Assembly (NCBI GenBank): GCA_002011125.2
Contig: MTMF02000009.1
Location: 1,032,989 to 1,096,988, forward strand
Length of the DNA stretch: 64,000 nt
Direction of reading: 5' to 3'
DNA from: Candidatus Hydrothermarchaeum profundi
GTDB taxonomy: Archaea > Hydrothermarchaeota > Hydrothermarchaeia > Hydrothermarchaeales > Hydrothermarchaeaceae
The stretch's first letter is position 1. The number at the start of each line of letters is the position of its first letter. A model generated the notes under the pieces. That model saw only the letters and a program-made list of their open reading frames with translations, made no database searches and was not told the DNA's origin. The translations under genes were made by a program, and so were the position numbers. Positions 16,645 to 58,190 of this stretch are shown piece by piece.

Positions 16645-17001
16645 ATGGAGGACTACGGTAAAAGTCTCATGGATATACGGAGAGAGGAAAGAGAAAAGCT
16701 TAGGAGAATATTCTCCTTAATCTTGAGTGTTACTTCTATTGTGCTCGGTGCGGCTCTCGCTTATGTGGGATACTCGGAAGAGAGTTTGTTGGGTTTATTC
16801 TTTTATTTTCTTTTTGGTCTGGGCTTAGTTTTTGTAGGCTTCCAAATTTTTCTCATGGAAACTAAAGAAAAAACTAAGAAAGTCGAAAATAATCCACCTC
16901 AAGAACAACAAGAGAAGCCTGATGTTGATAAGTGCCCTCATTGTGGAGCGGATATAACTACGGCTGGAAAGTTTTGCGGAAGCTGTGGAAGGATGTTATG
17001 A
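16645..17001 (+). CDS. 2-TM membrane protein with C-terminal zinc ribbon
   Basis: Two TM segments, then CPHCGA...KFCGSCG. Confidence 0.8.
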   Translation: MEDYGKSLMDIRREEREKLRRIFSLILSVTSIVLGAALAYVGYSEESLLGLFFYFLFGLGLVFVGFQIFLMETKEKTKKVENNPPQEQQEKPDVDKCPHCGADITTAGKFCGSCGRML

Positions 17002-17787
17002 GAGAGCCTTAGCCGTTTTAAAAGCTCTTAAATAGCCATCTACCGAATTAGCTCTTGAGGTATCGATTAGACACTTATCAACTCCGACTATGGGGGCTCC
17101 ATAGCCTTTACCATTTCCTATAAAAACCAAAGTTCTAAAAATCAAGTTTCCTGTAATGCCATTTGGGGCTATTATAAAATTTGCTCCATCTTTAATGGCA
17201 TCTTCAATTAATATCGAGTAATTTTTAACATTTCTTAAGGAACTAGAGATAAACTCGGCTTCGTCTAATGTCTTGTCTACTAGAGCATGCCTACCGTAAT
17301 CCTGCTTCCTACCACCACTTAATATACCAATTCTAGGTGTTAATCCAAGTTTCATTAGAATCTTGGTGCCCTCACTAATCAGAAAGGTCTTATCCTCAAT
17401 GCTCCATCCCTCGTCTATACCAACCGGAGCAAGCATAAAGGATTTCCCTTCGGGGGATTCTAATATTGCTATTCTACTTATTTTAGTATTGAAAGCATTT
17501 TTAATTGCTTGGATGAAACGCTTCGCATCTCCTGATCCCCTTATTGCAACATCTACCCTTCCTTTTTTTACTAATTCAACTAAATAGTTCTCTACATTTT
17601 TGGATTCTACTACCTCCGTATTTACATTGCTAGAAAATTTTAGTGGGGTAACTACGGTTACCTCTCCCTCTATTTCTGCAGCCTCTATGATCTTATTTAC
17701 ATACCCCTCTCTTTCGATTCCTGCACCAATAGCTATTTTTACTTTTTTTGCTTGTGCAACTTTCTCCAAAGCCTTTATAATGTCCAT
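16996..17787 (-). CDS. mtxX: MtxX / methanogenesis marker 4 family (phosphotransacetylase-like fold)
   Basis: LAPVGIDEG, ILSGGR..DYGR, ILIEDA, GITGNLIFRTL and DTSR motifs. Confidence 0.88.
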   Translation of the reverse strand: MDIIKALEKVAQAKKVKIAIGAGIEREGYVNKIIEAAEIEGEVTVVTPLKFSSNVNTEVVESKNVENYLVELVKKGRVDVAIRGSGDAKRFIQAIKNAFNTKISRIAILESPEGKSFMLAPVGIDEGWSIEDKTFLISEGTKILMKLGLTPRIGILSGGRKQDYGRHALVDKTLDEAEFISSSLRNVKNYSILIEDAIKDGANFIIAPNGITGNLIFRTLVFIGNGKGYGAPIVGVDKCLIDTSRANSVDGYLRAFKTAKALS

Positions 17788-17866: not shown

Positions 17867-18637
17867 ATGCTAAGTAAGCTACTAAAGCCGATTTATTTTG
17901 TATATGAGGCAAAGCTGGAAAGAGATGTTAAGAAGGGGAAACTACCTCGTCACATAGCCATTATTATGGATGGGAATAGGAGGTTAGCAGAAAAAGTAGG
18001 TATTATGCCATGGGAAGGACATAGACTTGGGGCTCAAAAGTTAGAAGAAGTATTAGATTGGTGCATCGATTTAGGAATAAAAACCGTCACGGCATACGCT
18101 TTTTCCAATGAAAACTTTTATAGACCAAAAATAGAGAGAGAACGTCTTTTTGATTTGTTTGAGGAGTATTTTAACAAGGTTGCGGTAGACAAAAAAATAC
18201 ATAAAAATAAGGCTAGGGTTAAGGCTATTGGCAGGAAGGAGAAATTTCCTCCGAGAGTAAGAGAGGCGATAAGAAGGGCAGAGGAGGCTACTAAGGATTA
18301 TAATAATTTTCACCTAAATTTAGCTGTGGCGTATGGAGGAAGACAGGAGATAGTGGACGCTGTAAAATCTGTTGCATCTGATGTCAAGACCGGTAAACTA
18401 GAGATAAAAGATATCGATGAGAAGATAATAAGTAAAAATCTGTATACAAATGGCTTGCCTGACCCTGATCTAGTGATAAGGACTTCAGGTGAAGAAAGAA
18501 TCTCGGGATTTCTTTTGTGGCAAAGTGCCTATTCCGAGTTATACTTCTGCGAGAGTTATTGGCCAGGGTTTAGAAAGATCGATTTTTTGAGGGCTATTAG
18601 GACATTCCAGCAGAGAAAGAGGAGATTTGGAAGATAG
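17867..18637 (+). CDS. uppS: cis-prenyltransferase (undecaprenyl diphosphate synthase)
   Basis: HIAIIMDGNRR, YAFSNENF, YGGRQE, IRTSGEERISGFLLWQ. Confidence 0.96.
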   Translation: MLSKLLKPIYFVYEAKLERDVKKGKLPRHIAIIMDGNRRLAEKVGIMPWEGHRLGAQKLEEVLDWCIDLGIKTVTAYAFSNENFYRPKIERERLFDLFEEYFNKVAVDKKIHKNKARVKAIGRKEKFPPRVREAIRRAEEATKDYNNFHLNLAVAYGGRQEIVDAVKSVASDVKTGKLEIKDIDEKIISKNLYTNGLPDPDLVIRTSGEERISGFLLWQSAYSELYFCESYWPGFRKIDFLRAIRTFQQRKRRFGR

Positions 18638-22290: not shown

Positions 22291-23922
22291 ATGGGTCTAT
22301 TAAAGATATTGAGGGTTAATCTCTCAAAGGAAAGTATTAAGGAGGAAGAGATTGAACAGGGAGATTTCATTGGAGGCAGAGGCCTTGGAGTGTATATTGC
22401 ATCGCGGGAACTTGATCCTAAAGTCGAAGCGTTCTCTGAAGGCAATAAGATAATCATATCTAACGGCCCATTAGCGGGTACTTTAGTTCCCTTCAGTGGT
22501 AGATGTAATGTAACAAGTAAGTCGCCACTCACAGGTACCCTATTTAGTTCTAATGCGGGAGGGATGTTTAGTTATGAGCTCAGCAAGACAGGATATGATG
22601 TCATAATAATTGAAGGAAAATCTAATGACCCAGTATATTTGAAAGTAGGAGACGATTCACAGATAGTTAATGCCACAGAGATATGGGGGAAAACTGTTTT
22701 TGAAACTCTTGAGTTCTTTAAAAAAACAGGACTTGAAAAAGGGAAGGTAGCATGTATAGGGCCTGCTGGTGAAAATTTAGTGAGATTTGCGAATATAATG
22801 GTACAAGGCCACAGAGCATTCGGAAGGGGCGGTTTAGGTTCTGTTATGGGGTTCAAAAAGCTAAAGGCAGTTGTACTGGACGGTTCTCAACATAAGAAGA
22901 AGAAATTCGAGGAGTTAGCGAGAGAATTAAGAAAGAAAATCAAGAGAATCTCAAGTCCACTTAAAACGCAGGGGACATCGAACATATTAGCAATAATTCA
23001 AGAGATTAGGTCTCTTCCTACAAAGAACTTCCAGCATAAGGAGTTCGAAAATGCGGATATGATAAATGGGGATGCTCTCAGGAAATATACGCTCCGAAGT
23101 GATACATGTTATTCTTGTATTATAGCCTGCAAAAGGATTACTCGTAGCGAGAGATATGGTATAGTTACAGATGGTCCGGAGTATGAGACTCTTGCAGCTT
23201 TTGGGTCGTACATTTGCAACTATGATATCGAAAGCATAATCAAAGCTAATGATCTTTGCGATAATATGGGAATTGACACTATTTCTATGGGAAGCGCTAT
23301 CGCACATTTCATGGAGGCCTCTGGGAAGTGGGGCGATTATGAATTAGCCCACGAGCTGATAGTTAAAACTGCGTATAGAGATGGAATCGGAGATAAGCTC
23401 GCAGAGGGTTCAGCAAGATTTGCGAAAGATATGGGTATTGAGGCGATAGCAGTTAAAGGAATGGATCTTCCAGCATATCATCCTCAAGGTCTATATGGCC
23501 AGGGTTTAGCGTTTGTAACGAGTAATAGAGGGGCGGACCACCTATATTCCTCTTATTATCTAGAGGAATTAAAAAGGAAAGATAGAGAAGCTCTTTCTAA
23601 AGAGAAGATTCCTGAGATTATCGCTAATGAAAATAAAAATGCAATCCTTGATTCGCTCATATTATGCAAGTTTTCACGGAGGTTTTACTCTATTGAAGAT
23701 TTCTTAAAGCTATTATCCATTACAATGTCTAGAGATATCAGTGAAGAAGAATTTTATGAGATGGGAGGAAAAATTATCACAGAAGAGAGAAGGTTCAATT
23801 TTAAAGCTGGAATAACGAAGGAGGATGTCTTGCCAAGTAGGATTTCGATCCCGGGTTTAAAAGAGGCGTTAAGAGAATATTACCTCCTAAGAGGATGGGA
23901 CAAGGAGGGGGCCCCTAAGTGA
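22291..23922 (+). CDS. tungsten aldehyde:ferredoxin oxidoreductase family (compact, 543 aa)
   Basis: GGRGLG, KSPLTG, IGPAGE, GRGGLG, CYSCIIAC, GPEYET, NRGADH, DSLILCKF. Confidence 0.9.
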   Translation: MGLLKILRVNLSKESIKEEEIEQGDFIGGRGLGVYIASRELDPKVEAFSEGNKIIISNGPLAGTLVPFSGRCNVTSKSPLTGTLFSSNAGGMFSYELSKTGYDVIIIEGKSNDPVYLKVGDDSQIVNATEIWGKTVFETLEFFKKTGLEKGKVACIGPAGENLVRFANIMVQGHRAFGRGGLGSVMGFKKLKAVVLDGSQHKKKKFEELARELRKKIKRISSPLKTQGTSNILAIIQEIRSLPTKNFQHKEFENADMINGDALRKYTLRSDTCYSCIIACKRITRSERYGIVTDGPEYETLAAFGSYICNYDIESIIKANDLCDNMGIDTISMGSAIAHFMEASGKWGDYELAHELIVKTAYRDGIGDKLAEGSARFAKDMGIEAIAVKGMDLPAYHPQGLYGQGLAFVTSNRGADHLYSSYYLEELKRKDREALSKEKIPEIIANENKNAILDSLILCKFSRRFYSIEDFLKLLSITMSRDISEEEFYEMGGKIITEERRFNFKAGITKEDVLPSRISIPGLKEALREYYLLRGWDKEGAPK

Positions 23923-24826
23923 GCTTTTTTAAAATGTTATCTAAAGCTGTTAGAATTTCCTCATAGCCATCTCCCCAATGCACGGTATATCCTAGGTGGC
24001 CATTAATCATTAGGGGACCGGTTTTATTTTTCAAACAACATCTCGTTATAAAGTATCCATCCACTTTATGCTTTCTAGGGCAGATATTATAAAATATAAA
24101 TCTCTTGCCAGGGAAGTTCTCGCTGAATACTTCTTTGGATACTTTGCATCCTATTAGAACTATTTTATCATTCTTTACGTCAAATTTTTTATCTAGGAAA
24201 ACAACTTTTGAACCATTAAGTACTTCCGGTATTCCTGAAGCCGAGCAAGGGAGTACAAGAAGAGAAGGTCTAAATTTTTTAGTTAATTCTCTAGCAATTT
24301 TTAAAATATTTATTCTTTTAAATTTAAACGATACCGGTATATCAAGTTGTGTTTTTCGGATGGTCTTTAAACTTTCCAGTAGTCTTGAAGGGTAGGGAGG
24401 GACAACATCTATAACATTAATAGTAGGAACTTTTTCAGGGACTATAGCAAAGTTCACATGATCATATTTCCCGAAAAAAACGACCCCCTTTACTCTCTTT
24501 CTCCTAGCTATCTCATGGGCAACTGTAAGGATTTCTGAATTACTAAGCGGATTTATTTTACTGCGAATAATCGCAGTATCCTCTGCCTTTGAGAGAACTT
24601 CTATTCCTTCAACTTTTCTCATAAAGGAAAAATTATCATTCGTTTTATCCAAAGGCTCCTCTTTTCTAACTCTAATGATTGTTGCATTGTCCGTCTTTTT
24701 ATTATAAAGAACAAGATATTCTGAAGAGAAATATACTTTCTTGTTTCTTGCTATCTCTCGGATTTCACGTTCATCATTTAGGTCTTTTTCAACTTCAACT
24801 AGCCCTACCATTTTGCAATGGTGCAT
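23915..24826 (-). CDS. conserved hypothetical protein with scattered Cys (PC, GC, ICP, RCC) and VHWG; possible Fe-S protein
   Basis: Preferred ATG at 24826, preceded by GAGG and just after the radical SAM stop. HVNF, DVVPP.P and VHWG motifs resemble a methanogen-associated uncharacterised family (recollection). Confidence 0.75.
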   Translation of the reverse strand: MHHCKMVGLVEVEKDLNDEREIREIARNKKVYFSSEYLVLYNKKTDNATIIRVRKEEPLDKTNDNFSFMRKVEGIEVLSKAEDTAIIRSKINPLSNSEILTVAHEIARRKRVKGVVFFGKYDHVNFAIVPEKVPTINVIDVVPPYPSRLLESLKTIRKTQLDIPVSFKFKRINILKIARELTKKFRPSLLVLPCSASGIPEVLNGSKVVFLDKKFDVKNDKIVLIGCKVSKEVFSENFPGKRFIFYNICPRKHKVDGYFITRCCLKNKTGPLMINGHLGYTVHWGDGYEEILTALDNILKKLT

Positions 24827-24828
24827 AA

Positions 24829-25794
24829 TTAAACCTCTGTTGGAGATAATTGACAGGCAGAACAGAGCCCGCACATAGTCTTTCCAGTATATATGAGCCC
24901 GTAATTATTGAGTATCTCCTTCTGACTTCTAGAAAGAAATAATATTCTAGCTGCATTTGGTCTTTCTGCTTTTCCCATTGTTGCTTCTATTAATGGAGCA
25001 CTATTTCTCGGCATTGTAAGAGGTCTTAGATGCGCTATAACCCCTATAGACGTCAGTTCTTCCAGCCCTCTTATTACGGTAGAATCACTTTCTCCTAACC
25101 CTATTATCACATTGGAGAATACTTTACCCTCACCGAACGTATTTACTGCTTCTTTGAGATGGTGAAGAATATACTCTAAGGACTTATTTGGGCAGACTTT
25201 TCTCAGGATTTTATGATCGAAACTCTCAATATTATATTTTATCTCATCTACCCCTGCTTGGAATAGTTTTTCTGAGGCACCTTCAGCAGGGTAAATTGAA
25301 ACTCCAATTGGACAATTGAATTCCTCTCTTAACTCTTTAACGATATTCACCATTTTTTCTAACTCTAGTGAGGGGGTTAGGGGTATTCCGGAGGTTAAGG
25401 AAATAGCCTTTAGCATGGGATCAACAGCAGCATTCCTAACAATTTTAATGACATCCCGATTATCTCTTTTTGCCTTTAACTCGCAGAATTTACAGCCATA
25501 GTTACAGGAAGTACTAACCATTATGTAGGCCTGTTCTGGGCAGTGAGATAACGGCTTCTCAAGCCTGCACTCCAAAGTTCTATCACCTAAGAAAATCCGA
25601 TTTTTTCCATTTTCGTTCTTGATTTTTAATTGTGAATCTTTAGATAGTATCAGTCTGATTCTCTGTTTGCCCACTCTCGCGAATAGGGATGGAGCACCAG
25701 CACCTGGGCCTCCTGAACTTATAGAAAGCATTTTTGATGGTATTCCCTCAGCATGTATTTCCCCAATAGCTAGGAGTTCTGCCTTAGATATCAT
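24829..25794 (-). CDS. radical SAM enzyme with extra C-terminal CxxCxxC
   Basis: GPGAG, HCPEQAY, CNYGCKFC, NVIIGLGE, C-terminal MCGLCSAC. Confidence 0.88.
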   Translation of the reverse strand: MISKAELLAIGEIHAEGIPSKMLSISSGGPGAGAPSLFARVGKQRIRLILSKDSQLKIKNENGKNRIFLGDRTLECRLEKPLSHCPEQAYIMVSTSCNYGCKFCELKAKRDNRDVIKIVRNAAVDPMLKAISLTSGIPLTPSLELEKMVNIVKELREEFNCPIGVSIYPAEGASEKLFQAGVDEIKYNIESFDHKILRKVCPNKSLEYILHHLKEAVNTFGEGKVFSNVIIGLGESDSTVIRGLEELTSIGVIAHLRPLTMPRNSAPLIEATMGKAERPNAARILFLSRSQKEILNNYGLIYTGKTMCGLCSACQLSPTEV

Positions 25795-26681
25795 AGTTCT
25801 ACTCCTTCATCTGGATCATTATAAAATGCTATTGCCGCAGCAGAACCTATAAGTCCCCTTTCTCCGGTTATAGGATATAATTTTATATTACATTTTTCTG
25901 AGATATCGTAAACAGAATTTAAATTTACTAATCTCCTTTTTACAAGCTTCCCGTAATCTCTTATTTCTTTTTTTAACTCAAAATCATTTAAAACAGCCAT
26001 CCCCGTGTTTTCTGAAAGAGTATTTTTTTCGAGCATAAGCTCAAACTTTTTAATTAAACCATCCACATCATTTGTAGCAAATTCAACAGCAGTACTAGCA
26101 CAGTTCTGTGTTTTATAGGGATTTTTGGAATAAAGTTGAACTATGGAGTGATAAAGATAGCTTCCAATACCCTCTTTCTCTATCATTGAAGCTATATTGT
26201 GTGTAAGAGACCATGTTGCACCTTTATTCTGATTGTCTGTGTCATCCACACCTACAACAACTCTCTCTTTTCTCGGTAAAACAAGTTTAGCTCTTACAAG
26301 GCTACTTCCTCCAGGTTCTCCAATCATCTCAGCACTAATGACTCCTTTAGCTTTCTCTCTCGCCGCTATACCAACGCTGCTTCCCCCTAATCCACAATAA
26401 CCTATTTCAACGATTTTATCTTCGATAGATACACTTTCTATGCCAAAGGGTGAAATGCTGGGTTGGAGATTAACCGGTTTTTCACCGACTCTTAGCCTGA
26501 ATCTGTTTTGGGTACCCTCCCTCCTAGCATCTATAATTAAAGGAGAAGTCCTTTTAAGATGATATACTATCCATGCTGAACCCCCCTGTGTTGGTGACTC
26601 TTCGATTAAGTCGACAAATTTTGCAGTTTTATCGACTATCGCATCTATTCTGCTATAGGATACCGACCATTTATGATCCAT
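25791..26681 (-). CDS. methanogenesis marker protein 11-like (DUF1743; TiaS-like GxDDTD domain)
   Basis: RTSPLI, YCGLGG, VGVDDTD...GATW, VQLY..NPYKTQNC, GERGLIG. Confidence 0.8.
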   Translation of the reverse strand: MDHKWSVSYSRIDAIVDKTAKFVDLIEESPTQGGSAWIVYHLKRTSPLIIDARREGTQNRFRLRVGEKPVNLQPSISPFGIESVSIEDKIVEIGYCGLGGSSVGIAAREKAKGVISAEMIGEPGGSSLVRAKLVLPRKERVVVGVDDTDNQNKGATWSLTHNIASMIEKEGIGSYLYHSIVQLYSKNPYKTQNCASTAVEFATNDVDGLIKKFELMLEKNTLSENTGMAVLNDFELKKEIRDYGKLVKRRLVNLNSVYDISEKCNIKLYPITGERGLIGSAAAIAFYNDPDEGVEL

Positions 26682-26696
26682 ATAAATTATCCAATA

Positions 26697-28058
26697 TTAT
26701 ATGTCCAATCCCATATTCGCGATATCTGATTTAACCTCGCTCCAGATCTGTAGATAGTCTGATGAAGGCGATATCTCTTTAGGCGAGTAGCATTCTGTAA
26801 AACTTTTTCCCTCAGGTATCCTACCTTCCAGAAGATTGTCTTCATAACGATTTATAAGTTCATTTAACACATCGTTAGCTTCTTTAATATCTATCTTTGC
26901 AGCAACTTCGCTCACTTCCTTAGCAACTCTAGCTTCCATTCCAGTATAATAATCTGTTTTTGCCCCTTTTGTTGCACCAGAGCTGAATATCATGTCTGCT
27001 CCGCATAACGTATCAACAATAGTTTGGGCAGCGATTTCATAACATAACATATCAGTACAAGGTTCTCCTCCGGCCCAGATCCAATTGTCAACAATAATAT
27101 CGAATCTTTTTTTAACAGCTAGTAGGCTAGAAGCTAGTACCCATAATGTGCCCTTCTCCGTACTTGTAGAGGTTCTTATGCTTGAGGGGGATGTGCCTGA
27201 TGTTGTAGCTCCTAACAGATAGTCAAGTATTATTTCCGCTGTGCTTACTATCGCAGTTTCCTCTGGTCCTCCTATATACCCCACCATGGGGCACTGGCTG
27301 GCTTCTAATATAAGTTTATTATGTTTTATGTAATATAGTCTGTTTAATAGATTTATATCTATTTTTAGCTCGTTTAGAGGCGCTAGATTGAACATGTCAG
27401 TTTCTCTCATCCCCCCCGGCGAGTAGCCCGAATTTAGAGATACTGCCGAAGTTCCAGACATAGGGCCTACGATACATAAACCCGGTTTCTGTGCTTTCTT
27501 TATAGCTTCTCTGATCAACCTAACTTCATGTAATACGGCTCCCACTTCTATAGGAGTCCCTTTCTTTATGCTAAGATTGTGGTAGGTTGTAAGGCATCCT
27601 CCTATAATCCCATCTATTTCTTCTTTTGCGTAGCTATATAGAACATCTCGATATATATTCTCTGAAACAGGGCAACCACATACTCCGCCAACAATTAGGG
27701 GAGCTTTTTTCTCTCCTATTTTTCTGGCAGTGATGTCTCTAAGCTCTTCCCCACTGCCGATCGATACAGTTGAAGATGCGTCTTTTAATGCAGTATGAAT
27801 CTCTTTTTCATTGAATGTTACTCGAGTAGAGGTTATCCCAGAATACTGTAAACCCACTTCGCATAGCAAGTCTACAGCAGCATCGAAAAGATTTTTAGTC
27901 AAGTTTTCATCTGTAGGTATTATCTCTGAAGGAGTATATTGAATCTCGTATTCATTTTTCAGTTCGGCTGCTTTTTTTAGTAAAATCATATCAAAGTCTG
28001 TCTCTGAAATTTGTTCTCCTCCTTCACATCTATTCCAGAGTTCAATAGCACTCTCCAT
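26697..28058 (-). CDS. MtmB-family (monomethylamine:corrinoid methyltransferase-like) protein without pyrrolysine
   Basis: MtmB-like motifs LNELKID, GYIGGPEETAIV, PCTDM..YE.AAQ, YTGMEAR, PEGKSFTECY; uninterrupted ORF; GGAGGT SD upstream. Confidence 0.88.
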   Translation of the reverse strand: MESAIELWNRCEGGEQISETDFDMILLKKAAELKNEYEIQYTPSEIIPTDENLTKNLFDAAVDLLCEVGLQYSGITSTRVTFNEKEIHTALKDASSTVSIGSGEELRDITARKIGEKKAPLIVGGVCGCPVSENIYRDVLYSYAKEEIDGIIGGCLTTYHNLSIKKGTPIEVGAVLHEVRLIREAIKKAQKPGLCIVGPMSGTSAVSLNSGYSPGGMRETDMFNLAPLNELKIDINLLNRLYYIKHNKLILEASQCPMVGYIGGPEETAIVSTAEIILDYLLGATTSGTSPSSIRTSTSTEKGTLWVLASSLLAVKKRFDIIVDNWIWAGGEPCTDMLCYEIAAQTIVDTLCGADMIFSSGATKGAKTDYYTGMEARVAKEVSEVAAKIDIKEANDVLNELINRYEDNLLEGRIPEGKSFTECYSPKEISPSSDYLQIWSEVKSDIANMGLDI

Positions 28059-28179
28059 GATCGTACCTCCTATTCTTTTTTATGTGTAGAAGATATATAG
28101 TTCTATTTATTTAGAAGTTACGAAAAGAAGGAGAGGGCATGTTTAAATCCTTAGAGAAATACTCAATGCTAGACTATTA

Positions 28180-28779
28180 TTAATGTGTTGCGTGGTCGAC
28201 ATCTTCAGGGGCTGCTGGGATGTAGATAGCTCCTTCCTTATCTCCTATAATCTGACATAGTCCTTTATCAGTTAGATAGGCGGTGTAGGCTGATATGACT
28301 GCGTCGAGTTCATGATGGTTAGATTTATCCAAAAACCCGTTTGGGTCACTTATAACTCTACTTATTTCTCGTATCAGTATCTTTCTTCCTCCAGAACTTT
28401 TCTTATTTATTTTAGTAGCTATACCTAACCTTCTTCTAGTTGCGTAGGGATATACCTCGATGCATTTTATACCTCGTTTTGTGAGTTCCTTTAAGATATA
28501 AATACCTGTTTTGGTGAGTTTAGAAAAATTTTTAGCTCCTGGAGGAAGACAGGGTATGCCCATCTTAAGAAGTAGCTTATCGCATTTTCTCCAAGGGCCA
28601 TTAATAGGTGATGTTAGTGGTGCATCAATCCCTACGAGAACACACGAATACTCAATTGTTTTTCTAATTACCTCTTTTAAACTTAAAATGTCCAAATATA
28701 ATAGTTCTTTTTCTTCATTTATAAGCGCGAATCCAGATTTTTTCGTAGAAAGATCGATTCCTCCGTAGTTCCTTATCAT
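28180..28779 (-). CDS. DUF429 predicted nuclease (RNase H fold)
   Basis: GIDL, GIDAPL, RKCD, IEVYP, HELDAVISA. Confidence 0.87.
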   Translation of the reverse strand: MIRNYGGIDLSTKKSGFALINEEKELLYLDILSLKEVIRKTIEYSCVLVGIDAPLTSPINGPWRKCDKLLLKMGIPCLPPGAKNFSKLTKTGIYILKELTKRGIKCIEVYPYATRRRLGIATKINKKSSGGRKILIREISRVISDPNGFLDKSNHHELDAVISAYTAYLTDKGLCQIIGDKEGAIYIPAAPEDVDHATH

Positions 28780-28887
28780 ACACTTACTTTATACTTTATT
28801 AAATGAAATACATTGAGCTTCTAACTACCGCAAGGAACATCTAAAATATATCTGTGAGATATTTCATTAAGGAATTTTCACATTACT

Positions 28888-29523
28888 TTAACCTAATTGC
28901 TCAACAATACCTACGCTTATCAGAGCTTTAACAGGCTTATCTCCCACGGTTGTTATGCCCTTTTTGTCTATCATTATAACTGCGGCTAACGGGTTAGCAC
29001 CCTGTTCTTCTAAAAAATTTATAGTATCTTTTATTGTACTGCCGGTAGTAGCGATGTCGTCAACTATTATAACATTCTTTCCTTTTACGTCTGCGAAGTT
29101 TGATAGTAGAAATCCGGATTGGTTCTTCTCTTTTTCCCTTTCCGGCTCCCATAGATGTTTTTTTGGCCTAATTACGGCTAAGGATGCGCCCATTTGTTCA
29201 GCAATTGTAGTCGCAATAGGTACTCCGCTAACAGCTATACCTGCGATGACATCCGGATTAGGAAGATTATGTTCTTTTATAATACTCTTAATCAGCTCAA
29301 CTAAAGCACATGAAAGATTCTTTAAAATTAATGGATTAGAACCAACATTGCTCCAATCAATATAAATGTCCTTAGGAGCTTTCTTCTTTTCTTCGGCTTC
29401 ATGAGTAACTAGCCAAAGGGCAGTTTCTCTAGAGATATTTAGTTCATCTGCGATTTCTCCGGTAGTAAATCCCTTCTCTTTCAGTTCATGTGCTTTTTTC
29501 ATTAGGTCAGCGATATTTCTCAT
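28888..29523 (-). CDS. HTH-phosphoribosyltransferase-like protein (PyrE-like / GfcR family)
   Basis: N-terminal GEIADELNISRETALWL, PKDIYIDWS and IIVDDIATTGST PRT motif. Confidence 0.87.
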   Translation of the reverse strand: MRNIADLMKKAHELKEKGFTTGEIADELNISRETALWLVTHEAEEKKKAPKDIYIDWSNVGSNPLILKNLSCALVELIKSIIKEHNLPNPDVIAGIAVSGVPIATTIAEQMGASLAVIRPKKHLWEPEREKEKNQSGFLLSNFADVKGKNVIIVDDIATTGSTIKDTINFLEEQGANPLAAVIMIDKKGITTVGDKPVKALISVGIVEQLG

Positions 29524-43397: not shown

Positions 43398-44090
43398 ATG
43401 AGGCTACTCATTAGTCCTATTGATGTTGAGGAAGCAGTTATAGCGGCGAGTGCAGGGGCGGATATAATCGATGTAAAAAACCCTCGTGAGGGCTCGTTAG
43501 GAGCTAACTTTCCATGGGTGATTAAACAGATAAGGGAAGCTTTACCTCCGAGAATTGAGGTGAGTGCGACCCTTGGTGACTTAGATTTTAAGCCAGGGAC
43601 AGCTGCATTGGCAGCTTTTGGCTTATCTTCTCTTGGAGTGGACTACATAAAAGCCGGATTATATGGTATGAAGAGTAGAGAGCAAGTTATTGAGATCTCA
43701 GAGAAGATTGCAAGATCTATTGAATCCAAGGCCAATCTGGTCTTGGCGGCATATGCGGATTATAAGGAGATAAATTCGATCTCTCCTATGATGCTGCCGG
43801 AGATTGCAGCGAAGGTAGGGGCCTATGGAGTGATGATTGATACAGCTCAAAAGAATGGTAGAACATTACTTGACCACCTTGAACTAGAGAAATTGGAAGA
43901 GTTTGTTAAACTCTCTAAAGATCTTGATTTAATGGTTGCTCTAGCTGGTTCACTAGGCTTTAGGGAGATATTAGAACTAAAGAAGGTGAAGCCCGACATA
44001 ATAGGTGTTAGAGGCTTGGTGTGTGATGGAGACAGAGTACGTGGAAGAATTTCAGAAGAAAAAGTTAGGCAACTGGTATCTATCCTCTAG
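43398..44090 (+). CDS. mfnB: (5-formylfuran-3-yl)methyl phosphate synthase, methanofuran biosynthesis
   Basis: LLISP, DIIDVKNPREGSLGANFPW, SATLGD, DYIK.G, ALAGSL, IIGVRG.VC. Confidence 0.93.
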   Translation: MRLLISPIDVEEAVIAASAGADIIDVKNPREGSLGANFPWVIKQIREALPPRIEVSATLGDLDFKPGTAALAAFGLSSLGVDYIKAGLYGMKSREQVIEISEKIARSIESKANLVLAAYADYKEINSISPMMLPEIAAKVGAYGVMIDTAQKNGRTLLDHLELEKLEEFVKLSKDLDLMVALAGSLGFREILELKKVKPDIIGVRGLVCDGDRVRGRISEEKVRQLVSIL

Positions 44091-50990: not shown

Positions 50991-52235
50991 ATGAGAGTAC
51001 TACTAGTTCATCCATCTTTTCCCTATAAGGGTAGAGACCTTTTCCCTATCGGTCTGGGTTATTTGGCGTCAGTAATTAAAGATAGGGCAGAGATTTTAGT
51101 GATAGATGACCCGGTAGAGCCTTTTGATGCTGAGAAGGTTAAAAAATTCAGGCCAGATATTATTGGTATCTCCTCTACTACGCCGTCTTTTTCAAGAGCA
51201 GCTGAGATAATAGGTAAAATTAGAGCTCTAGGCATCGAAACTACCCTAGTAGTTGGAGGAGTCCATGCTACCTTTAGACCAGAAGATGCATTAGCAGCCG
51301 GGGCAGATATTGTTGTTAGGGGGGAAGGAGAGATAGCTTTTTCCAAGATAGTTGGAGGACATGATTTGTCTACGATAAGAGGAGTATCTTACAGCGATAA
51401 TGGGATAAAGCACAATCCCGATGAGAAGCTAATCGAGGACCTTGATAAAATACCTTACCCCGCCTATGAATTTTTTCCTATACACAGCTACGGTATAATG
51501 TCGATAGTTACTAGCAGGGGGTGCCCTTACTCCTGCACGTATTGCTCTGCCACAAGATTTTGGAGACATAAAGTAAGATTTCGATCTCCAAAGAATGTTA
51601 TCGGAGAGCTCGAGAAGATAGTTGAGTTAAACCATAAGAGGATTAAATTTATGGACAGTACCTTTACTTTGGACAAGGAGAGGGCAATTAAAATATGTGA
51701 GGGTATTATAGAGAAGGGACTCGATATAATATGGAGCTGTGAAACTAGGGCAGATCATTTAGATGACGAGCTATTACAAGCTCTTTCAGAAGCCGGATGT
51801 AATCTATTATGCATAGGAGTCGACTCGGGCTCTCAAGAGATACTAGATAAAAGCAAAAGGCGGATGAAAGTCTCTACGATTGTAGACGCTTTTGATAAGG
51901 CAAGGAAATATGGCATTAAAACAAGGGCATATGTAACTTTCGGGTTACCTGGAGAAAACAAGCAGTCACCAGAGACAACTATTAGGCTTTTAGAAAGGAT
52001 TAAACCAGGTCAAACGTTGCTATCCTTAGCAACCTCTTATCCTGGCACAGAGCTTTATGACGGGAAACATATAGATGTTCATCCCAGTTGGGTATCAAAA
52101 TTTCATGGTCATGGTTTAGGAGCTAAATTATATTTACCGGAAACTCTTAGTAAAAGGGATTACATAAGGCTTGCAGACTATATGTACAGGGAAGTAAAGA
52201 GAATAAATAGGCTTTCAAGTACCCAAGGTATCTAA
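50991..52235 (+). CDS. cobalamin-binding radical SAM protein (class B)
   Basis: PIGLGYLAS, VGGVHATF, VRGEGE, TSRGCPYSCTYC, FGLPGE. Confidence 0.92.
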   Translation: MRVLLVHPSFPYKGRDLFPIGLGYLASVIKDRAEILVIDDPVEPFDAEKVKKFRPDIIGISSTTPSFSRAAEIIGKIRALGIETTLVVGGVHATFRPEDALAAGADIVVRGEGEIAFSKIVGGHDLSTIRGVSYSDNGIKHNPDEKLIEDLDKIPYPAYEFFPIHSYGIMSIVTSRGCPYSCTYCSATRFWRHKVRFRSPKNVIGELEKIVELNHKRIKFMDSTFTLDKERAIKICEGIIEKGLDIIWSCETRADHLDDELLQALSEAGCNLLCIGVDSGSQEILDKSKRRMKVSTIVDAFDKARKYGIKTRAYVTFGLPGENKQSPETTIRLLERIKPGQTLLSLATSYPGTELYDGKHIDVHPSWVSKFHGHGLGAKLYLPETLSKRDYIRLADYMYREVKRINRLSSTQGI

Positions 52236-52298: not shown

Positions 52299-55200
52299 TT
52301 ATGAGAGTTCCTTTATCTTTTCCTCGATTTTTCGTAGCTTTTCCTGGTTTTTCTTTCTTAATTCAGTATAGGTCTTTCTTGATATCATGCCACTGCTATG
52401 TTGCTTCTTTAGGGTTTCTAACAGCTTCTTTATTCTCTCCTTTTCCCTTCTAAGTTCTATAAGCTCATCAGACATTTTTGGCGGGACATTCTGTGGTATA
52501 GTTGTAGAGGGCTTAGATTTTTTAGCAGGCTTCTGTTCAACTTTTCTAGGAGGACCTATCCGCATAGCAGTTTTCTCCGCAAAACTTTCAAATTTCTTGT
52601 ACCACTTCATGCCGAAGTATACAACGAGACCTATTGTGAGGATAAAGAAAAACGCAGTAATGCCAATCCACATGTATGGAGTCTCGGGAGTAGGAGTAGG
52701 CGTCTCTGTAGGAACAACTTTGACTACTTCTACAGGAGTAGCTTTATCGAGAATACTGTTAACCTGATCTATATATTTTAAGCATCTCTCTATAGATTCT
52801 AGTACTTTGGGATACTCGCCATTTTTCAGATACTCCTCCGCATTGAAAATTTCATTCGCAGCTTTATCTAGTAAATCTAAGGAGTTAGAAACATTTTTTC
52901 CCTCGCTTATTGCTTTGAATACTCTCCTCTCAACTGTTCTTAATCTTTCATTGGCAGCATCTATTTCAAATTCAAAAAGTTCCTGCTTTGAGTCAAAAAT
53001 ACGCAGAATAATATCCTTTTCATCTGTTGCTTCAGTTGAAACAACTTTAACGGTTAAAATTCTAGGACCTGGAGAAGCGTTTTGGGGAACCTTAATCTCT
53101 ATAAGGACATCAAATATATCTGCAGGAAGAAGTTCCGATGTTTGGTATTTTATCATCTCATACCAATCTTCAGGGATTCCGGTAAGACTAGCCTCAACCG
53201 AATGTAGGGTTTCAGTTCCAGAATTATTCACAGTGGCAACAAGATATACCCAGCCCCCTCTCTCTAATAAGATCTCTTCAGGATGAATATCTTCAATCTT
53301 GATTTCTGTTTTTTTGAGTATCTCCTCCTCTTCAGTAACTCCTCCACCACCGCCACCACCTATTATGGGTGGAGGCAATACTTCAGCAGCGCCTCCACTA
53401 ACAATCAAAGGGATCTCGGCAACGGCAGGTGGCTTCTCAGGGTCGTATATTACTGTTCCCCGTAGCGTATATTCCCCGGGATCTAACTCTACATTGGTGA
53501 AATTCCTCTCGAATCTAAGCTCTACTCCGGGTGGAGGATTTTTAACCGTCTCCGTATAACTATAAGACGTGCCTACGATTGTATAAGTAAGAGGCAGATC
53601 CTGGATATTCGGGTCTCCAAAATAAGTAAGCAAAATAGTGAAATCTGCATTATCTCCTTTATTTATTTCTATTTTACTCTCAGCAAACCTAATATCCGTT
53701 ACACCATATTTTATTCTGAATACTTCGATATCCCACGCCCTCATAGTACCTACCTTAACCTCAAGAAAAGCCAAATAAGAGTCGACTGCAGTATTACTCG
53801 GATTAAGGTCCTCGGTATACCTATATAAGCCGTCACTAACTTTTGTCATATTTCCGATCTCAAGCCTCCTCCACACATCATAGGTAGAATTCCTGATAAC
53901 TAAGGTTAAAGAATCAGGCTCAACTCCTAGACCCGTACCCGCGTCTAGTACTTGAACAGTTATTTCCATGGTTACATTTTCGGTTGTGCTTAGATAATAG
54001 GTAGGTTGTACTCCTATCTTCACAAACAAGCTTTGATATACATCGAAGAGCACTATCTCCTCAGCTTGGGACGCTCCATACCTTGCGGTACCTTCCAGTC
54101 TATATGTTCCCGGAGTCGCGTTAATATCTAATGGGATATCTGCTATCTTAGAGGGGCTAACTACATCTGTGAAGGTTGCATTATAGATTATGTTTCCATC
54201 AGGGTCTTTTAGGAGTAAAGAAACGTTAGCTCCATCTAGATATTGTCCATCAGCATTTTTTATCTCTCCCTTTACCGATACTGTATCGCCCGCCCTATAC
54301 GGTCCCCCAGGATATAAATCGAATTGCAATGCTCCGCCTTCTAATACTGTAAATGTATCTATCACAGTACTTGAAATCGGTCCATAATATGCGGTCGCTG
54401 TAACAATATATGTACCCGAAGTTGCATTATTAGGTAAGGTATACTCAGACTTATATGCTGGTCCAGGGATCAAAGTTGAATTTTCTTCGTATAAGATAGT
54501 GTTATCTAGTGATACTGTAACTGTGAGATAGTCAACCTGGAAGAGTTGATTGTCCTTAAGGACCGTGCTAAGTATCGTTACGTTTTCGCCTGGATAGTAT
54601 AAATCTCCTGCACTTGTATCAACCGATAAACTACCGACGAAAAATACCCCAGAATCATAAGCAAAGACATTCTGCCCAATATCTGTATAATTGACATCTA
54701 CACTCCAGTAATAGAATCCTTCTACGCCTGTAAACTTGAAGCTTGTTGAACTAATACCCTCTGAGGATGTAACTAAATATTTCGGCCAGCTTCCATCTAA
54801 CCCAAAGTGATTACCGCTTTCATTGTTTAGTAGAATATCAACGATTGCAGTCGCAGCCTCTATTGGTTCTCCTATAAGATCAGTTACATTGACTTGCATA
54901 CTGCCCGAGTCATCTGGTTCAAAAATAGTTGAGCTAGTGAGTACAGTGAGTCTGAGTTTTGCGAACACACTAAAGTTTTTTGCATCGGATTCTCCCCATC
55001 CTCCAGCAGAGTCTTGTGAGTATACTACTATAGTATAATTTCCTCTGAGTAGAGTATCCTGATAATTCGCAGTCCAATTTGAAGAGTTTTCAGGATCATT
55101 ATAAAGATCTATTTGGTGAATATTACCGAAAGAGTCTGTTATATTAGCTTTAACCCATTCGATTCCTTTGCCAATCCTATCCGTCAAGTTTGCTTTTATA

Positions 55201-58190
55201 GTAACTGAGCCATTTTGCTCTATAAGCTGTGGTGAGACTTCAAAATCAATTAAAGGTCCTAGTTCTACTCGTAGATATACCGAAATATTTTGTGAAGTAG
55301 GGATAGATCCTGCGTCAATAGCGTCTACAGTAAACACAGCTACATAAGTGTTCCCAGCGTTAGCGTCCTGGGTGTCAAATTGGATATTGAAAAGATGTGT
55401 TGAGCTGTTTTCGACTATAAAAGTTGTTTCATTAGGAAAGAGATATGCGCTTCCATTTCCAGATGAAGTAATGCTGAAGTTTATAGGTACATTTCCCGTG
55501 TTATTTATTTCCACTTCGCAGTTAAATATCTCTCCAGTTTTATTTGGCGGCGCGGCGTCTTCGCATATTTCGCGACTCAGCGTCCATGTTCTCGATTCAG
55601 GTACTTCCACACTAAGAATTATTGTATCTCTGCCATCTTCACTTGTATCGCTCGAATTGACTTCTACAATACCACTATAGTTTCCAGGAGGATATCCTTC
55701 TGGGATTGTAACATTTATCTCTACAGACTCAGAGGCTGCTGGATTTATCGATGCGAAATAATCAGGGTAAAGGGTTACATTGAATTCACTGCATACTACT
55801 CCAGAGCCACAGGAGGCATATACCTCTTCTACCTTGTAGTTTCCAATAGATTCTACTGTAAATGTTCCTACAGAACCTGAAGTGCCTTCCTGAATACTCG
55901 AGTATAGAAGGTCCTGTACTATATTTATTACGGGATTTTGAAGTACTTCCACTGTTAATGTATCTTGAGAATAACTTTCATTTCCATCGAAATTCATCCA
56001 CTCAGCTGTAGCATTTATGGTATAATTGCCGGGTGAGGTAGCAGCAGGTGCGGTTACCCTAATATCCTTGATACAAGGACTACTGCCCGGAAAAAGATCA
56101 GGGCAGTTAATTTTATTATCACTATAATTAGTACTCCATCCAGCTGAGCTGAATGAGATAGTAATATTGACTGAGGTAGCTGAACCCAGACCAGTATTTG
56201 TTACATTTACTTGGATGTCGAAGCTTTGATTATCGTTCTGAGTTATCCCATCAATATATGTGGTATTTGTGACAATACTCGTTTCGAGAGTAGTATTCTC
56301 AGCTTGATAGGTAGTGAAATTAACGGTTGAAGTGCCCGTATTGTTGCTTTTAGTAAGATTACAAGTTAAGTTCCATACTCCAACTTCGCTAGGAGATGAA
56401 TAGTTTATATAATATACTCCATTGTCGCTGTCAAACGATATATTATCTACTTCTGTCACCTTCGTGTATTCGGATGAATTATAATACTCGCAATACAAAT
56501 TTCCAAAAATTTTTGTGTCATTTCTATAGTTTTGAACTGTTACATTAGCCCTGAAAGTTGTTTGATTAACTAGGCCCACGTTATACGTCGGAGGCCAAAA
56601 GATAATTTCAATATTAAAAGTCTTAGAAAGATAAAAAGTGGTAGTAGTAGTGTTTAGCACTTGCCCATTGCTATTATAGACATACGCGGTTATTGTCCAA
56701 TTTCCTTCTACACTATCGGCCTGAAATGTATAAGTGTTAGAATAAACATTATCATTTGGAAGTTGGTCTCCGTGGGTTCCATCGTCATATAAAACTAAGG
56801 TTATATCATCGTTTGGGTTAGTAGTTCCCATATCTAACGTGGCATTTACAGAAGAGGTCTGGTTAAAATTATCCTCTGTGATATTCACAGTGATCAACGC
56901 AGTCTCATTTCTATTATAATATGGATAATCGGTTTTTACTTCAACACTTGCAGACCAGCTCTCAAGATTTCCCTGAGTTATTATGATGTTGTTTATTAGT
57001 CTATTTCTAAGTTCTAAAATAGGTTCATGGGATTCGATATCGTTAAAGTATATTACCGCTGTATCAGATATAGTATCTCCTTTTGAAAGGCTTTTTGACG
57101 AGAGATATATTCCAATTCTCGTATTGGAATCTTTGTTAGCGTAGTAATCCCCTCCGCTTTTATTTAAATTAATAACACCTATCCCTAAACCATTATCGAA
57201 AATTGAATAATAAGAATAGGGTTCGGTAGTAGTTCCCTGGATTTTATCAGGAGTTGGCGTGCCTATAGTAGACCTCCCTGTATCTAGAGCAAGAGCTGTA
57301 GTGTATGATCCTGATCCTCGAGAAATAGAATCGTTAGCCGTGAATCGCTGTTCGATTTTTATCCATTGATTATCCTCATAAAACACATATCTTTTTGTCA
57401 TGTTTCCTTTATTCGTATATTGTGGAGTAGTTTCCCCACTTGACCCCCATAATATTTCATCTCCTTCTTGTTCGATTATTTTCCTAATAGGGCCATCAGA
57501 TATAACCCTGAAGTTTTTCCTGAAATCATACTCATAATACTCGCCTGAAACACTACTATAGTAACGTATGTATTCTATTGGTAATTGGCTAGTAGGAGCA
57601 TTGAAGATAATCTCTCCGGTATCTCTTAATTTTGCAAAATACATACCAGCGGTCCTATTGAGATGGTTATAGGTATCTACTTTTATCTCTAACTTTGAGG
57701 TATTAACCCAGAACTCTTCCCCACTCTTGTTCACAAACGATAGTTCAGTGGTGTAGTTAGGAGGAGACTTTCCGTTTTCTATTGTATCAAAATAAATATA
57801 ATAATAATAGAGGGTGTTCTCAGTTCTGTTCCCTGACAAGAGCCAAACTACTTCACCTATAGCGTTTCCATTTGCATCATAGTTGGAATACTCATCAAAT
57901 TGACTTAGTATCCCCTCATTTAAGGAACCGCTGTCTTTAATAGACCCATTATCGTAATATTCTATTACTCTAATGGAATTATTATCAAAGGTTCCATTTA
58001 TTCCAAGAGATGAGAAATTTATAGGGTACTCTACAGGCCAATTAGTTCGGTTGTATGTTGATGTATTTACGATTATTCCAACCCGATAATGCCAACTCGA
58101 GTTCCACCATTCAAAGTTAGTGGCAGAGACATTTTCTAGGTTTAAAAATAAAATTACAGCAACAACTAATAATAGAGCTTTTTTGCTCAT
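52299..58190 (-). CDS. giant (1963 aa) membrane-anchored surface glycoprotein with Ig-like/CARDB-like repeats
   Basis: Signal peptide; WWNSSWHYR N-domain; LYDDGTHGD..ND.VYS Ca-binding-like loop; many N-x-S/T sequons; poly-Gly and PT linkers; C-terminal TM and basic cytoplasmic coiled coil. Confidence 0.88.
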   Translation of the reverse strand: MSKKALLLVVAVILFLNLENVSATNFEWWNSSWHYRVGIIVNTSTYNRTNWPVEYPINFSSLGINGTFDNNSIRVIEYYDNGSIKDSGSLNEGILSQFDEYSNYDANGNAIGEVVWLLSGNRTENTLYYYYIYFDTIENGKSPPNYTTELSFVNKSGEEFWVNTSKLEIKVDTYNHLNRTAGMYFAKLRDTGEIIFNAPTSQLPIEYIRYYSSVSGEYYEYDFRKNFRVISDGPIRKIIEQEGDEILWGSSGETTPQYTNKGNMTKRYVFYEDNQWIKIEQRFTANDSISRGSGSYTTALALDTGRSTIGTPTPDKIQGTTTEPYSYYSIFDNGLGIGVINLNKSGGDYYANKDSNTRIGIYLSSKSLSKGDTISDTAVIYFNDIESHEPILELRNRLINNIIITQGNLESWSASVEVKTDYPYYNRNETALITVNITEDNFNQTSSVNATLDMGTTNPNDDITLVLYDDGTHGDQLPNDNVYSNTYTFQADSVEGNWTITAYVYNSNGQVLNTTTTTFYLSKTFNIEIIFWPPTYNVGLVNQTTFRANVTVQNYRNDTKIFGNLYCEYYNSSEYTKVTEVDNISFDSDNGVYYINYSSPSEVGVWNLTCNLTKSNNTGTSTVNFTTYQAENTTLETSIVTNTTYIDGITQNDNQSFDIQVNVTNTGLGSATSVNITISFSSAGWSTNYSDNKINCPDLFPGSSPCIKDIRVTAPAATSPGNYTINATAEWMNFDGNESYSQDTLTVEVLQNPVINIVQDLLYSSIQEGTSGSVGTFTVESIGNYKVEEVYASCGSGVVCSEFNVTLYPDYFASINPAASESVEINVTIPEGYPPGNYSGIVEVNSSDTSEDGRDTIILSVEVPESRTWTLSREICEDAAPPNKTGEIFNCEVEINNTGNVPINFSITSSGNGSAYLFPNETTFIVENSSTHLFNIQFDTQDANAGNTYVAVFTVDAIDAGSIPTSQNISVYLRVELGPLIDFEVSPQLIEQNGSVTIKANLTDRIGKGIEWVKANITDSFGNIHQIDLYNDPENSSNWTANYQDTLLRGNYTIVVYSQDSAGGWGESDAKNFSVFAKLRLTVLTSSTIFEPDDSGSMQVNVTDLIGEPIEAATAIVDILLNNESGNHFGLDGSWPKYLVTSSEGISSTSFKFTGVEGFYYWSVDVNYTDIGQNVFAYDSGVFFVGSLSVDTSAGDLYYPGENVTILSTVLKDNQLFQVDYLTVTVSLDNTILYEENSTLIPGPAYKSEYTLPNNATSGTYIVTATAYYGPISSTVIDTFTVLEGGALQFDLYPGGPYRAGDTVSVKGEIKNADGQYLDGANVSLLLKDPDGNIIYNATFTDVVSPSKIADIPLDINATPGTYRLEGTARYGASQAEEIVLFDVYQSLFVKIGVQPTYYLSTTENVTMEITVQVLDAGTGLGVEPDSLTLVIRNSTYDVWRRLEIGNMTKVSDGLYRYTEDLNPSNTAVDSYLAFLEVKVGTMRAWDIEVFRIKYGVTDIRFAESKIEINKGDNADFTILLTYFGDPNIQDLPLTYTIVGTSYSYTETVKNPPPGVELRFERNFTNVELDPGEYTLRGTVIYDPEKPPAVAEIPLIVSGGAAEVLPPPIIGGGGGGGVTEEEEILKKTEIKIEDIHPEEILLERGGWVYLVATVNNSGTETLHSVEASLTGIPEDWYEMIKYQTSELLPADIFDVLIEIKVPQNASPGPRILTVKVVSTEATDEKDIILRIFDSKQELFEFEIDAANERLRTVERRVFKAISEGKNVSNSLDLLDKAANEIFNAEEYLKNGEYPKVLESIERCLKYIDQVNSILDKATPVEVVKVVPTETPTPTPETPYMWIGITAFFFILTIGLVVYFGMKWYKKFESFAEKTAMRIGPPRKVEQKPAKKSKPSTTIPQNVPPKMSDELIELRREKERIKKLLETLKKQHSSGMISRKTYTELRKKNQEKLRKIEEKIKELS

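Follow-up and report, generated by a model that had tools for sequence, protein, structure and literature searches.

A 64,000-nt stretch of the genome of Candidatus Hydrothermarchaeum profundi (contig MTMF02000009.1, positions 1,032,989 to 1,096,988 of the forward strand; hereafter the window) contains four tightly packed, co-directional minus-strand open reading frames (ORFs) at 23915-28058, which encode an MtmB-like protein (gene 1), methanogenesis marker protein 11 (Mmp11, gene 2), a radical S-adenosylmethionine (SAM) protein (gene 3) and a DUF7714 protein (gene 4). The explanation that we favour, with somewhat better than even confidence, is that two functional units, one consisting of gene 1 and the other of genes 2-4 as a thiol-forming module, have been placed side by side in this lineage. 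What is conserved is the radical SAM-DUF7714 pair, together with its link to Mmp11, and not the MtmB fold; the string includes an undescribed iron-sulfur (Fe-S)/radical cofactor-type module, and the MtmB fold stands outside it. The most useful result is that the radical SAM-DUF7714 pair is a candidate replacement for the lipoyl synthase protein LipS2. The four genes are as follows.

Gene 1, 26697-28058, minus strand: MtmB-like protein of 453 aa (PF05369)
Gene 2, 25791-26681, minus strand: Mmp11, 296 aa (TIGR03280)
Gene 3, 24829-25794, minus strand: radical SAM protein of 321 aa (PF04055)
Gene 4, 23915-24826, minus strand: DUF7714 protein of 303 aa, counted from the ATG at 24826 (PF24830); translation could instead start at GTG 24874 or ATG 24811

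The radical SAM-DUF7714 pair in Asgard archaea

The distribution of the pair was followed in a sample of 201 Asgard genomes, entered via a Baldrarchaeota locus. DUF7714 was found in 13 of these, and in all ten genomes that have a radical SAM gene of the window type this gene lies immediately upstream of the DUF7714 gene, in the same order as in the window. The ten orthologues are 34-38% identical to gene 3 and keep its CX3CX2C, HCPEQA and C-terminal CX2CX2C motifs. The other three fetched DUF7714 loci (G172, G178 and G184) have no window-type radical SAM neighbour. A profile of the radical SAM protein matched exactly the same ten genomes of the 201; as it was built from them, the absence of matches elsewhere is the informative part.

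In all ten loci, tblastn gave the arrangement LplA - LipS1 (divergent) - radical SAM - DUF7714, and three of the LipS1 genes scored 278-287 bits on NF053742, whose cut-off is 230. LipS2 is reported to attach sulfur to C8, the last carbon of the octanoyl group, after which LipS1 acts at C6 (PMC9585515). Canonical LipS2 scored above its cut-off in 122 of the 201 genomes and in none of the ten pair carriers, and LipA did so in 41 of the 201, again in none of the ten. Had the pair displaced LipS2 non-orthologously, this is the pattern that one would expect (Fisher one-sided p = 3e-8, with kinship ignored). That the carriers lack both LipS2 and LipA, and that the pair lies beside LipS1 and LplA, argues that the pair probably performs a LipS2-type terminal thiolation. 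The 'Asgard' passages of PMC10332631, its supplementary tables (which may list LipS1-only genomes) aside, make no mention of a LipS2 substitute.

The Asgard genomes also showed the link to Mmp11. Of the 201, 11 have an Mmp11-like gene, that is, in nine of the ten pair carriers against two of the 191 others. The matches are full-length, score 142-239 bits (below the cut-off), and mostly have an N-terminal helix-turn-helix (HTH) region. Among the host phylum, which is represented by 38 species genomes in the collection, all three genomes with DUF7714 also have Mmp11. No match to the alpha subunit of methyl-coenzyme M reductase (MCR) was obtained in the 201 Asgard genomes, pair carriers included; the link between Mmp11 and the pair is therefore independent of MCR. 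Mmp11 is a likely helper of the pair. The Mmp11-like proteins of loci L059, L061 and L069 (genomes G077, G045 and G114) are 370-385 aa long with an N-terminal HTH of the TrmB type, and their genes share a conserved context of a CitG-like gene and two kinds of unknown gene, of 350-417 aa and ~225 aa, without a match to any family.

Several observations weigh against reading the pair as a LipS2 replacement that is assisted by Mmp11. A second LipS2-like paralogue is present in six of the ten carriers (E 2e-44 to 1e-64, 215-219 bits where listed, below the cut-off), and this paralogue, not the pair, could be the real LipS2 substitute; in G067, G077, G114 and G120 the pair is the only candidate for that role. 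The carriers may form one clade, in which case the co-occurrence counts overstate independence. The Asgard Mmp11-like gene is not adjacent to the pair (it lies 47 kb off in G077), and the control M. jannaschii has Mmp11 and no DUF7714. In two relatives of the host, G012 and G018, DUF7714 adjoins NadA genes without such a radical SAM gene. Finally, the host has a LipA gene beside E1/E2 genes, LplA-LplB, and no LipS1, and the pair would be superfluous for ordinary lipoylation there.

In the Asgard sample as a whole a LipS2-like paralogue is widespread, often alongside canonical LipS2; it is 375-400 aa long and scores 215-260 bits, short of the cut-off.

Lipoylation genes of the host

The host genome (2.19 Mb, 97.65% complete) carries at C9:357684-361909 an operon-like cluster of lipA - E1 alpha - E1 beta - E2 of a 2-oxoacid dehydrogenase, with the LipA gene directly upstream of the E1/E2 genes. 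The E2 protein has a lipoyl domain, and the LipA motifs are canonical (CX4CX5C, CX3CX2C and RSSY). LplA-LplB is encoded elsewhere in the genome, away from the window. LipS1 is absent from the host genome, where the best score was 37.5 bits, and so is GcvH, which three family relatives possess. Since the host has LipA and no LipS1, ordinary lipoylation is already covered and the pair is not needed for it. Ordinary lipoyl synthesis was therefore rejected as the role of the pair in this host, as LipA adjoins E1/E2, and the target of the module there is probably not ordinary lipoylation, because the host has its own LipA without LipS1.

The radical SAM and DUF7714 proteins

Gene 3 carries the motifs SCNYGCKFC (CX3CX2C), HCPEQA and, at its C-terminus, MCGLCSAC (CX2CX2C). 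All of its NCBIfam matches are sub-threshold: 78.9 bits on variant_rSAM, 63 and 59.9 bits on LipS2 (range 55-63 bits; model NF053743, cut-off 270) and 60.2 bits on TIGR04043 (the MSMEG_0568 family, cut-off 303.7). It has no close orthologue in the host phylum, where the closest protein is only 34% identical. When 25 radical SAM proteins were compared in a maximum-likelihood tree, gene 3 fell together with eight Asgard pair-type enzymes (support 98/98) in a clade that is sister (83/67) to a TIGR04043-like clade holding the Mmp11-adjacent enzymes of the relatives G027 and G018, and that stands apart from canonical LipS2 and LipS1. On these sequence grounds gene 3 is assigned to the LipS2-like/variant-rSAM superfamily.

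Gene 4 matched PF24830 (DUF7714) at 194.1 bits, well above the gathering threshold of 25, and NF052538, the XcbA family, at 118.9-119.7 bits, below the cut-off of 150. All 58 aligned DUF7714 relatives match NF052538. The superfamily is small: of the 1.84 billion searched, 128 representative clusters matched at E <= 0.001, and none of the 128 representatives exceeds 387 aa. Four cysteines (C194, C227, C249 and C263) are invariant in the 58 sequences and a fifth, C264, is nearly so. The predicted model is of high confidence (predicted local distance difference test, pLDDT, of 95.9), and comparison with the PDB gave no convincing match, the best Foldseek hit having E 5e-3 and a TM of ~0.2 and the best VIA-align hit a Z of 7.4 to a generic alpha/beta domain. 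A literature search for 'DUF7714' found no paper. Gene 4 is classed as a distant XcbA-superfamily member and a cysteine-rich Fe-S candidate. An earlier note on this DNA, made from the letters alone, had proposed that the string holds an Fe-S/radical module with a cofactor-type role, and this part of its proposal is supported.

In the host phylum DUF7714 was found in three of the 31 genomes searched, in two of them beside NadA genes. At L006 (G012:C3, 5602-10538) the DUF7714 gene lies between two full-length NadA genes, near those for aspartate dehydrogenase and NadC, and at L007 (G018) it is followed by an NadA-like gene that has diverged and by an AFOR gene. In the window an AFOR gene abuts the DUF7714 gene in convergent orientation, with an 8-nt overlap.

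XcbA of Xanthobacter is described as a [2Fe-2S] protein that converts sulfoethanethioaldehyde to coenzyme M (CoM), a primary thiol (PMC9457059). This one tested member of the XcbA family, a thioaldehyde reductase of CoM synthesis, speaks for a rival explanation in which genes 2-4 make a thiol resembling CoM or coenzyme B (CoB) from an aldehyde: Mmp11 would activate the carbonyl, sulfur would be added, the XcbA-like protein would reduce the thioaldehyde, and the product would serve the MT2 methyltransferases of a host without MCR. Mmp11 is, moreover, a methanogen marker that scored above its cut-off in both methanogen control genomes, and ComA is absent from the host genome (97.65% complete), yet this has 9-10 genes for MT2 methyltransferases of the URO-D type. 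We nevertheless regard such a route as rather unlikely, since mcrA is absent from the host genome (two models), the Asgard genomes, the ten carriers among them, gave no MCR alpha match, the Asgard pair lies beside LipS1 and LplA and not beside CoM or CoB genes, and DUF7714 stays below the XcbA family cut-off. A role in the modification or maturation of MCR was set aside, MCR alpha being unmatched in the host and in the 201 Asgard genomes alike.

Mmp11 and its neighbours

Gene 2 matched TIGR03280 over positions 1-290 of 292 with 322.4 bits (cut-off 255.8). Its predicted model (pLDDT 89.3) has nine PDB matches at E <= 0.001, all of which are TiaS, over ~155 columns with a root-mean-square deviation of 1.7-3.5 A. 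It is the C-terminal half that adopts the TCKD kinase fold of TiaS, and the N-terminal half has no clear match; on the TiaS model NF040849 the protein scored only 29.6 bits (cut-off 600), and it is the TCKD part alone that aligns, in sequence as in fold. The GxDDTD residues (G144, D146, D147, T148 and D149) do not vary among 14 sequences. Fusions of Mmp11 were absent among the longer proteins, which is weak evidence. Searches of the literature by its names ('methanogenesis marker protein 11', TIGR03280 and variants) found no paper, in agreement with the earlier statement that marker 11 has no assigned function.

In the relatives G027 and G018, Mmp11 is found in a different setting, radical SAM (TIGR04043, CX9CX2C) -> Mmp11 -> Mmp4/MtxX (TIGR03270), divergent from UppS; a short contig of G029 has Mmp11 -> Mmp4 only. 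The Mmp11-adjacent radical SAM proteins score 334 bits (G027) and 304 bits (G018) on TIGR04043, and the C-terminal CX2CX2C is common to them and to the pair-type enzymes. The corresponding genes of the window are:

16996-17787, minus strand: Mmp4/MtxX homologue of 263 aa, 44% identical (tblastn) to the Mmp4 of G027 (TIGR03270), with no Pfam match at 1e-5
17867-18637, plus strand: UppS, divergent from the Mmp4/MtxX homologue

The window Mmp4 is therefore still beside UppS, 8 kb from Mmp11, and Mmp11 instead precedes the radical SAM-DUF7714 pair. This arrangement would also result if the pair alone were the unit, and Mmp11 an unrelated neighbour brought there by a local rearrangement that also parted it from Mmp4. 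Such an explanation accounts for the different radical SAM and the Mmp4 that accompany Mmp11 beside UppS in the relatives, for the Mmp4 that remained beside UppS in the window, and for the Asgard Mmp11-like genes that do not adjoin the pair. It is set against the 4-nt ATGA overlap of Mmp11 with gene 3, which implies a putative translational coupling of the two, against the presence of the Mmp11-like gene in nine of ten carriers but only two of 191 other genomes, and against the pair-type enzyme being the sole candidate partner of Mmp11 in the host, because the host has no TIGR04043-type radical SAM protein bearing the C-terminal CX2CX2C. On balance we consider an accidental placing of Mmp11 unlikely, and a module of genes 2-4 remains the preferred reading.

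A second TIGR04043-like radical SAM gene of the host, at C9:1154330-1155337, scores 182 bits, has CX8CX2C and no C-terminal cysteine motif, and adjoins an ATP-binding cassette (ABC) transporter gene, a B12-radical SAM gene and an FmdE-like gene.

The MtmB-like protein and the host

Gene 1 matched PF05369 at 355 bits over profile positions 4-450 of 450, so that the fold is full-length. Its frame contains no stop, and the in-frame UAG (pyrrolysine, Pyl) expected of MtmB was not found; at the Pyl (TAG) position of the true MtmB of the host, gene 1 has Val. Thirteen relatives carry V, L, I, S, E or T at this position. The protein is therefore non-Pyl, as the earlier note had it. Relatives are scarce: a word-indexed search of 5.8 billion proteins yielded 14, and two loci in species genomes and 33 on metagenome contigs were found, at 33-53% identity. 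Among their neighbours are a corrinoid protein with a permease; RACo; Mch/AFOR/MttB with methanopterin genes; and MtrE with MtmC and a Pyl MtmB. Gene 1 is probably a corrinoid-dependent substrate:corrinoid methyltransferase (MT1). MtqB, a non-Pyl MtmB homologue, was identified in 2026 as a tetramethylammonium/choline:corrinoid methyltransferase (PMC13044021), and gene 1 is taken to be an enzyme of broadly this type.

A ~200-aa unannotated gene (DUF6951 in L011) directly flanks the non-Pyl MtmB-like gene in three metagenome contexts (L010/L013, L011 and L027), and weak homologues of it occur close to the host's true mtm cluster.

The true MtmB of the host, with a single in-frame TAG, is encoded at C9:1885113-1886459, ~825 kb from the window. 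The genome also has RACo, Mch and, outside the window, seven MtmC-like genes, and MtrE is absent by tblastn. The host looks like an MCR-less, pyrrolysine-using methylotroph. The region C9 ~1878000-1900300 holds the true MtmB gene amid three MtmC-like genes and a RACo-like gene. Methylamine methanogenesis was rejected as a role for the string, as gene 1 has no Pyl codon and no adjacent MtmC and the host has no mcrA.

It had been proposed in the earlier note that an MtmB-fold enzyme joined the Fe-S/radical module as one pathway. In such a pathway the MtmB-fold enzyme would methylate, or act on, the product of the module, for instance a new thiol serving as methyl acceptor. The 15-nt gap between genes 1 and 2, with no terminator-like site on the minus strand, is in favour of this, and so are the many methyl-transfer parts of a host without mcrA (9-10 URO-D MT2 genes, seven MtmC-like genes, RACo and Pyl MtmB) and the occurrence of pieces of all four genes in a strain of ~96% identity from another study. 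The neighbourhoods of the relatives tell against it. Mmp11, the gene-3-type radical SAM and DUF7714 were beside the MtmB-like relatives in none of the 35 loci (tblastn, E <= 1e-3), and neither of the two species genomes that bear an MtmB-like relative has Mmp11 or DUF7714 anywhere. Conversely, the MtmB-like protein of the window gave no tblastn match in eight Asgard loci around the pair. Within the host phylum the MtmB family was found in the host only, save for one remote match (38 genomes searched). A single pathway of all four genes is accordingly quite improbable, and the proposal is not supported: the gene-neighbourhood check found the MtmB-like gene beside the other three only in this genome within the searched collections, the very outcome that the note had named as speaking against its proposal. 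We conclude that gene 1 is a lineage-specific addition upstream of Mmp11, and that none of the searched collections supports placing it in one pathway alongside genes 2-4.

Locus architecture and surroundings

The arrangement given in the earlier note, with four minus-strand genes, junctions of 15 nt (genes 1/2), a 4-nt ATGA overlap (genes 2/3) and 2 nt (genes 3/4), and a GGAGGT Shine-Dalgarno sequence, agrees with the sequence, and all of its motifs were recovered, namely VGVDDTD and YKTQNC in gene 2, the C-terminal MCGLCSAC in gene 3 and several cysteines in gene 4. Upstream of the string lies:

28059-28179, minus strand: leader of the string, read from the sequence as AT-rich with TATA-like stretches and with GGAGGT 6 nt 5' of the gene 1 ATG

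A promoter scan with a sigma-70 model is uninformative for an archaeal host. No terminator-like site was found on the minus strand within 23500-29000, where both of the two matches are on the plus strand. The same note had listed MtmC, MtbA, RamA, permease and pyl genes as missing from the vicinity; for the first three this held, since the 61 window ORFs of at least 90 aa gave no Pfam match to corrinoid-protein (MtmC-type), URO-D/MtbA or RACo/RamA-type families, permease and pyl genes not having been searched one by one. Gene 1 accordingly has no cognate MtmC adjacent to it in the 64-kb window, whose sole B12-binding domain is that of a B12-radical SAM protein at 50991-52235.

In GC content, GC content at third codon positions (GC3) and codon usage the four genes are much like their neighbours, and recent horizontal transfer, as judged by composition, was not seen. 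A DNA run of a second study contains pieces of all four genes at ~96% identity (27 of 30 bins), and one of its contigs spans the gene 3/gene 4 junction. The source of this DNA is a close strain and not an independent lineage. Among RNA runs, none was listed as containing the region.

Other genes of the window are those for MfnB of methanofuran synthesis (43398-44090), for CcmF and for archaeal housekeeping functions, and one at 52299-58190 for a protein of 1963 aa that has NPCBM-associated and MG2 domains.

Proposed mechanism

The chemistry, the roles of the partner proteins and the substrate in the host may be pictured as follows. Gene 1, as the first unit, would most likely transfer a methyl group to one of the seven corrinoid proteins of the host, the methyl donor being, for instance, a quaternary amine, and we infer that it acts independently of genes 2-4. 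In the second unit the radical SAM protein, with its SAM cluster and a second cluster at the C-terminal cysteines, would insert sulfur at a terminal acyl carbon in the manner of LipS2. The DUF7714 protein would be its obligate XcbA-like Fe-S partner, which either releases or reduces a sulfur-bearing intermediate to the free thiol or re-supplies a sacrificial cluster. Mmp11, as a TiaS-type ATP-using enzyme, may assist the same reaction by activating the substrate or the sulfur.

A broader version of this scheme can be imagined, in which Mmp11, a LipS2-like radical SAM protein and an XcbA-like protein make up a general ATP-assisted terminal-thiol machine for medium-chain acyl groups. Its product would be the 8-mercaptooctanoyl group (lipoate) in Asgard archaea without LipS2, the 7-mercaptoheptanoyl group of CoB in methanogens (there with the sister radical SAM protein and Mmp4), and an undescribed thiol in the host. 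Such a thiol, made in a host without MCR, would explain the presence of a corrinoid methyltransferase gene in the same operon. We offer this as speculation and think it quite unlikely to be correct in full.

Significance

The LipS1/LipS2 archaeal lipoyl synthase was itself described recently, and the link of the pair to LipS1 and LplA is new. If the pair does stand in for LipS2, lipoate would be reached by one more route, in which the substitute consists of two proteins, a radical SAM enzyme from a different clade and an XcbA relative (XcbA being the CoM reductase). For methanogenesis marker 11 a working hypothesis is obtained, that of a helper of sulfur-inserting radical SAM enzymes, and the XcbA family would no longer be confined to CoM synthesis but have a wider part in thiol formation. 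There is also a lesson for annotation, as four genes in a tight string may be a patchwork of recent origin and not a pathway.

Comparison with known systems

The MtqB of Methanococcoides methylutens Q3c resembles gene 1 in having the MtmB fold without pyrrolysine, and the host is likewise rich in corrinoid proteins and MT2 enzymes. Unlike MtqB, gene 1 has no cognate corrinoid gene adjoining it.

The C-terminal half of Mmp11 is like TiaS, the tRNA(Ile2) agmatidine synthetase (PDB 3amt, 3amu, 4rvz and 5xob), in its TCKD kinase fold and its GxDDTD motif, but Mmp11 is without the tRNA-binding OB and zinc-ribbon domains and has a different N-terminal domain of ~140 aa. The uncharacterised radical SAM-Mmp11-Mmp4 cluster (TIGR04043-TIGR03280-TIGR03270) has the same Mmp11 family, a radical SAM protein of the sister clade with the same C-terminal CX2CX2C, and an Mmp4 that is also present in the window. 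Compared with this cluster, the order in the window string is swapped, CX3CX2C replaces CX9CX2C, and DUF7714 replaces Mmp4 as the third gene.

XcbA of Xanthobacter autotrophicus Py2 has its superfamily, size and set of invariant cysteines in common with the DUF7714 protein, which nonetheless falls short of the family cut-off (119 vs 150 bits). The host has no ComA/XcbB-E context, and the partner is a radical SAM protein, whereas that of XcbA is a pyridoxal phosphate (PLP) enzyme.

The two-protein lipoyl synthase LipS1/LipS2 (Thermococcus kodakarensis TK2109/TK2248; NF053742, NF053743) has, as does gene 3, the radical SAM CX3CX2C and additional conserved cysteines for a possible second cluster. 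Gene 3 is far below the LipS2 model cut-off (270) and belongs to a separate clade, sister to the TIGR04043 type; the pair-type enzyme is always accompanied by a DUF7714 partner, whereas LipS2 has none. The host differs from LipS1/LipS2 systems in having its own LipA and no LipS1, with LplAB away from the window. The Asgard orthologues of gene 3, however, hold the place of LipS2 beside LipS1 and the lipoate-protein ligase, in genomes that have neither LipS2 nor LipA.

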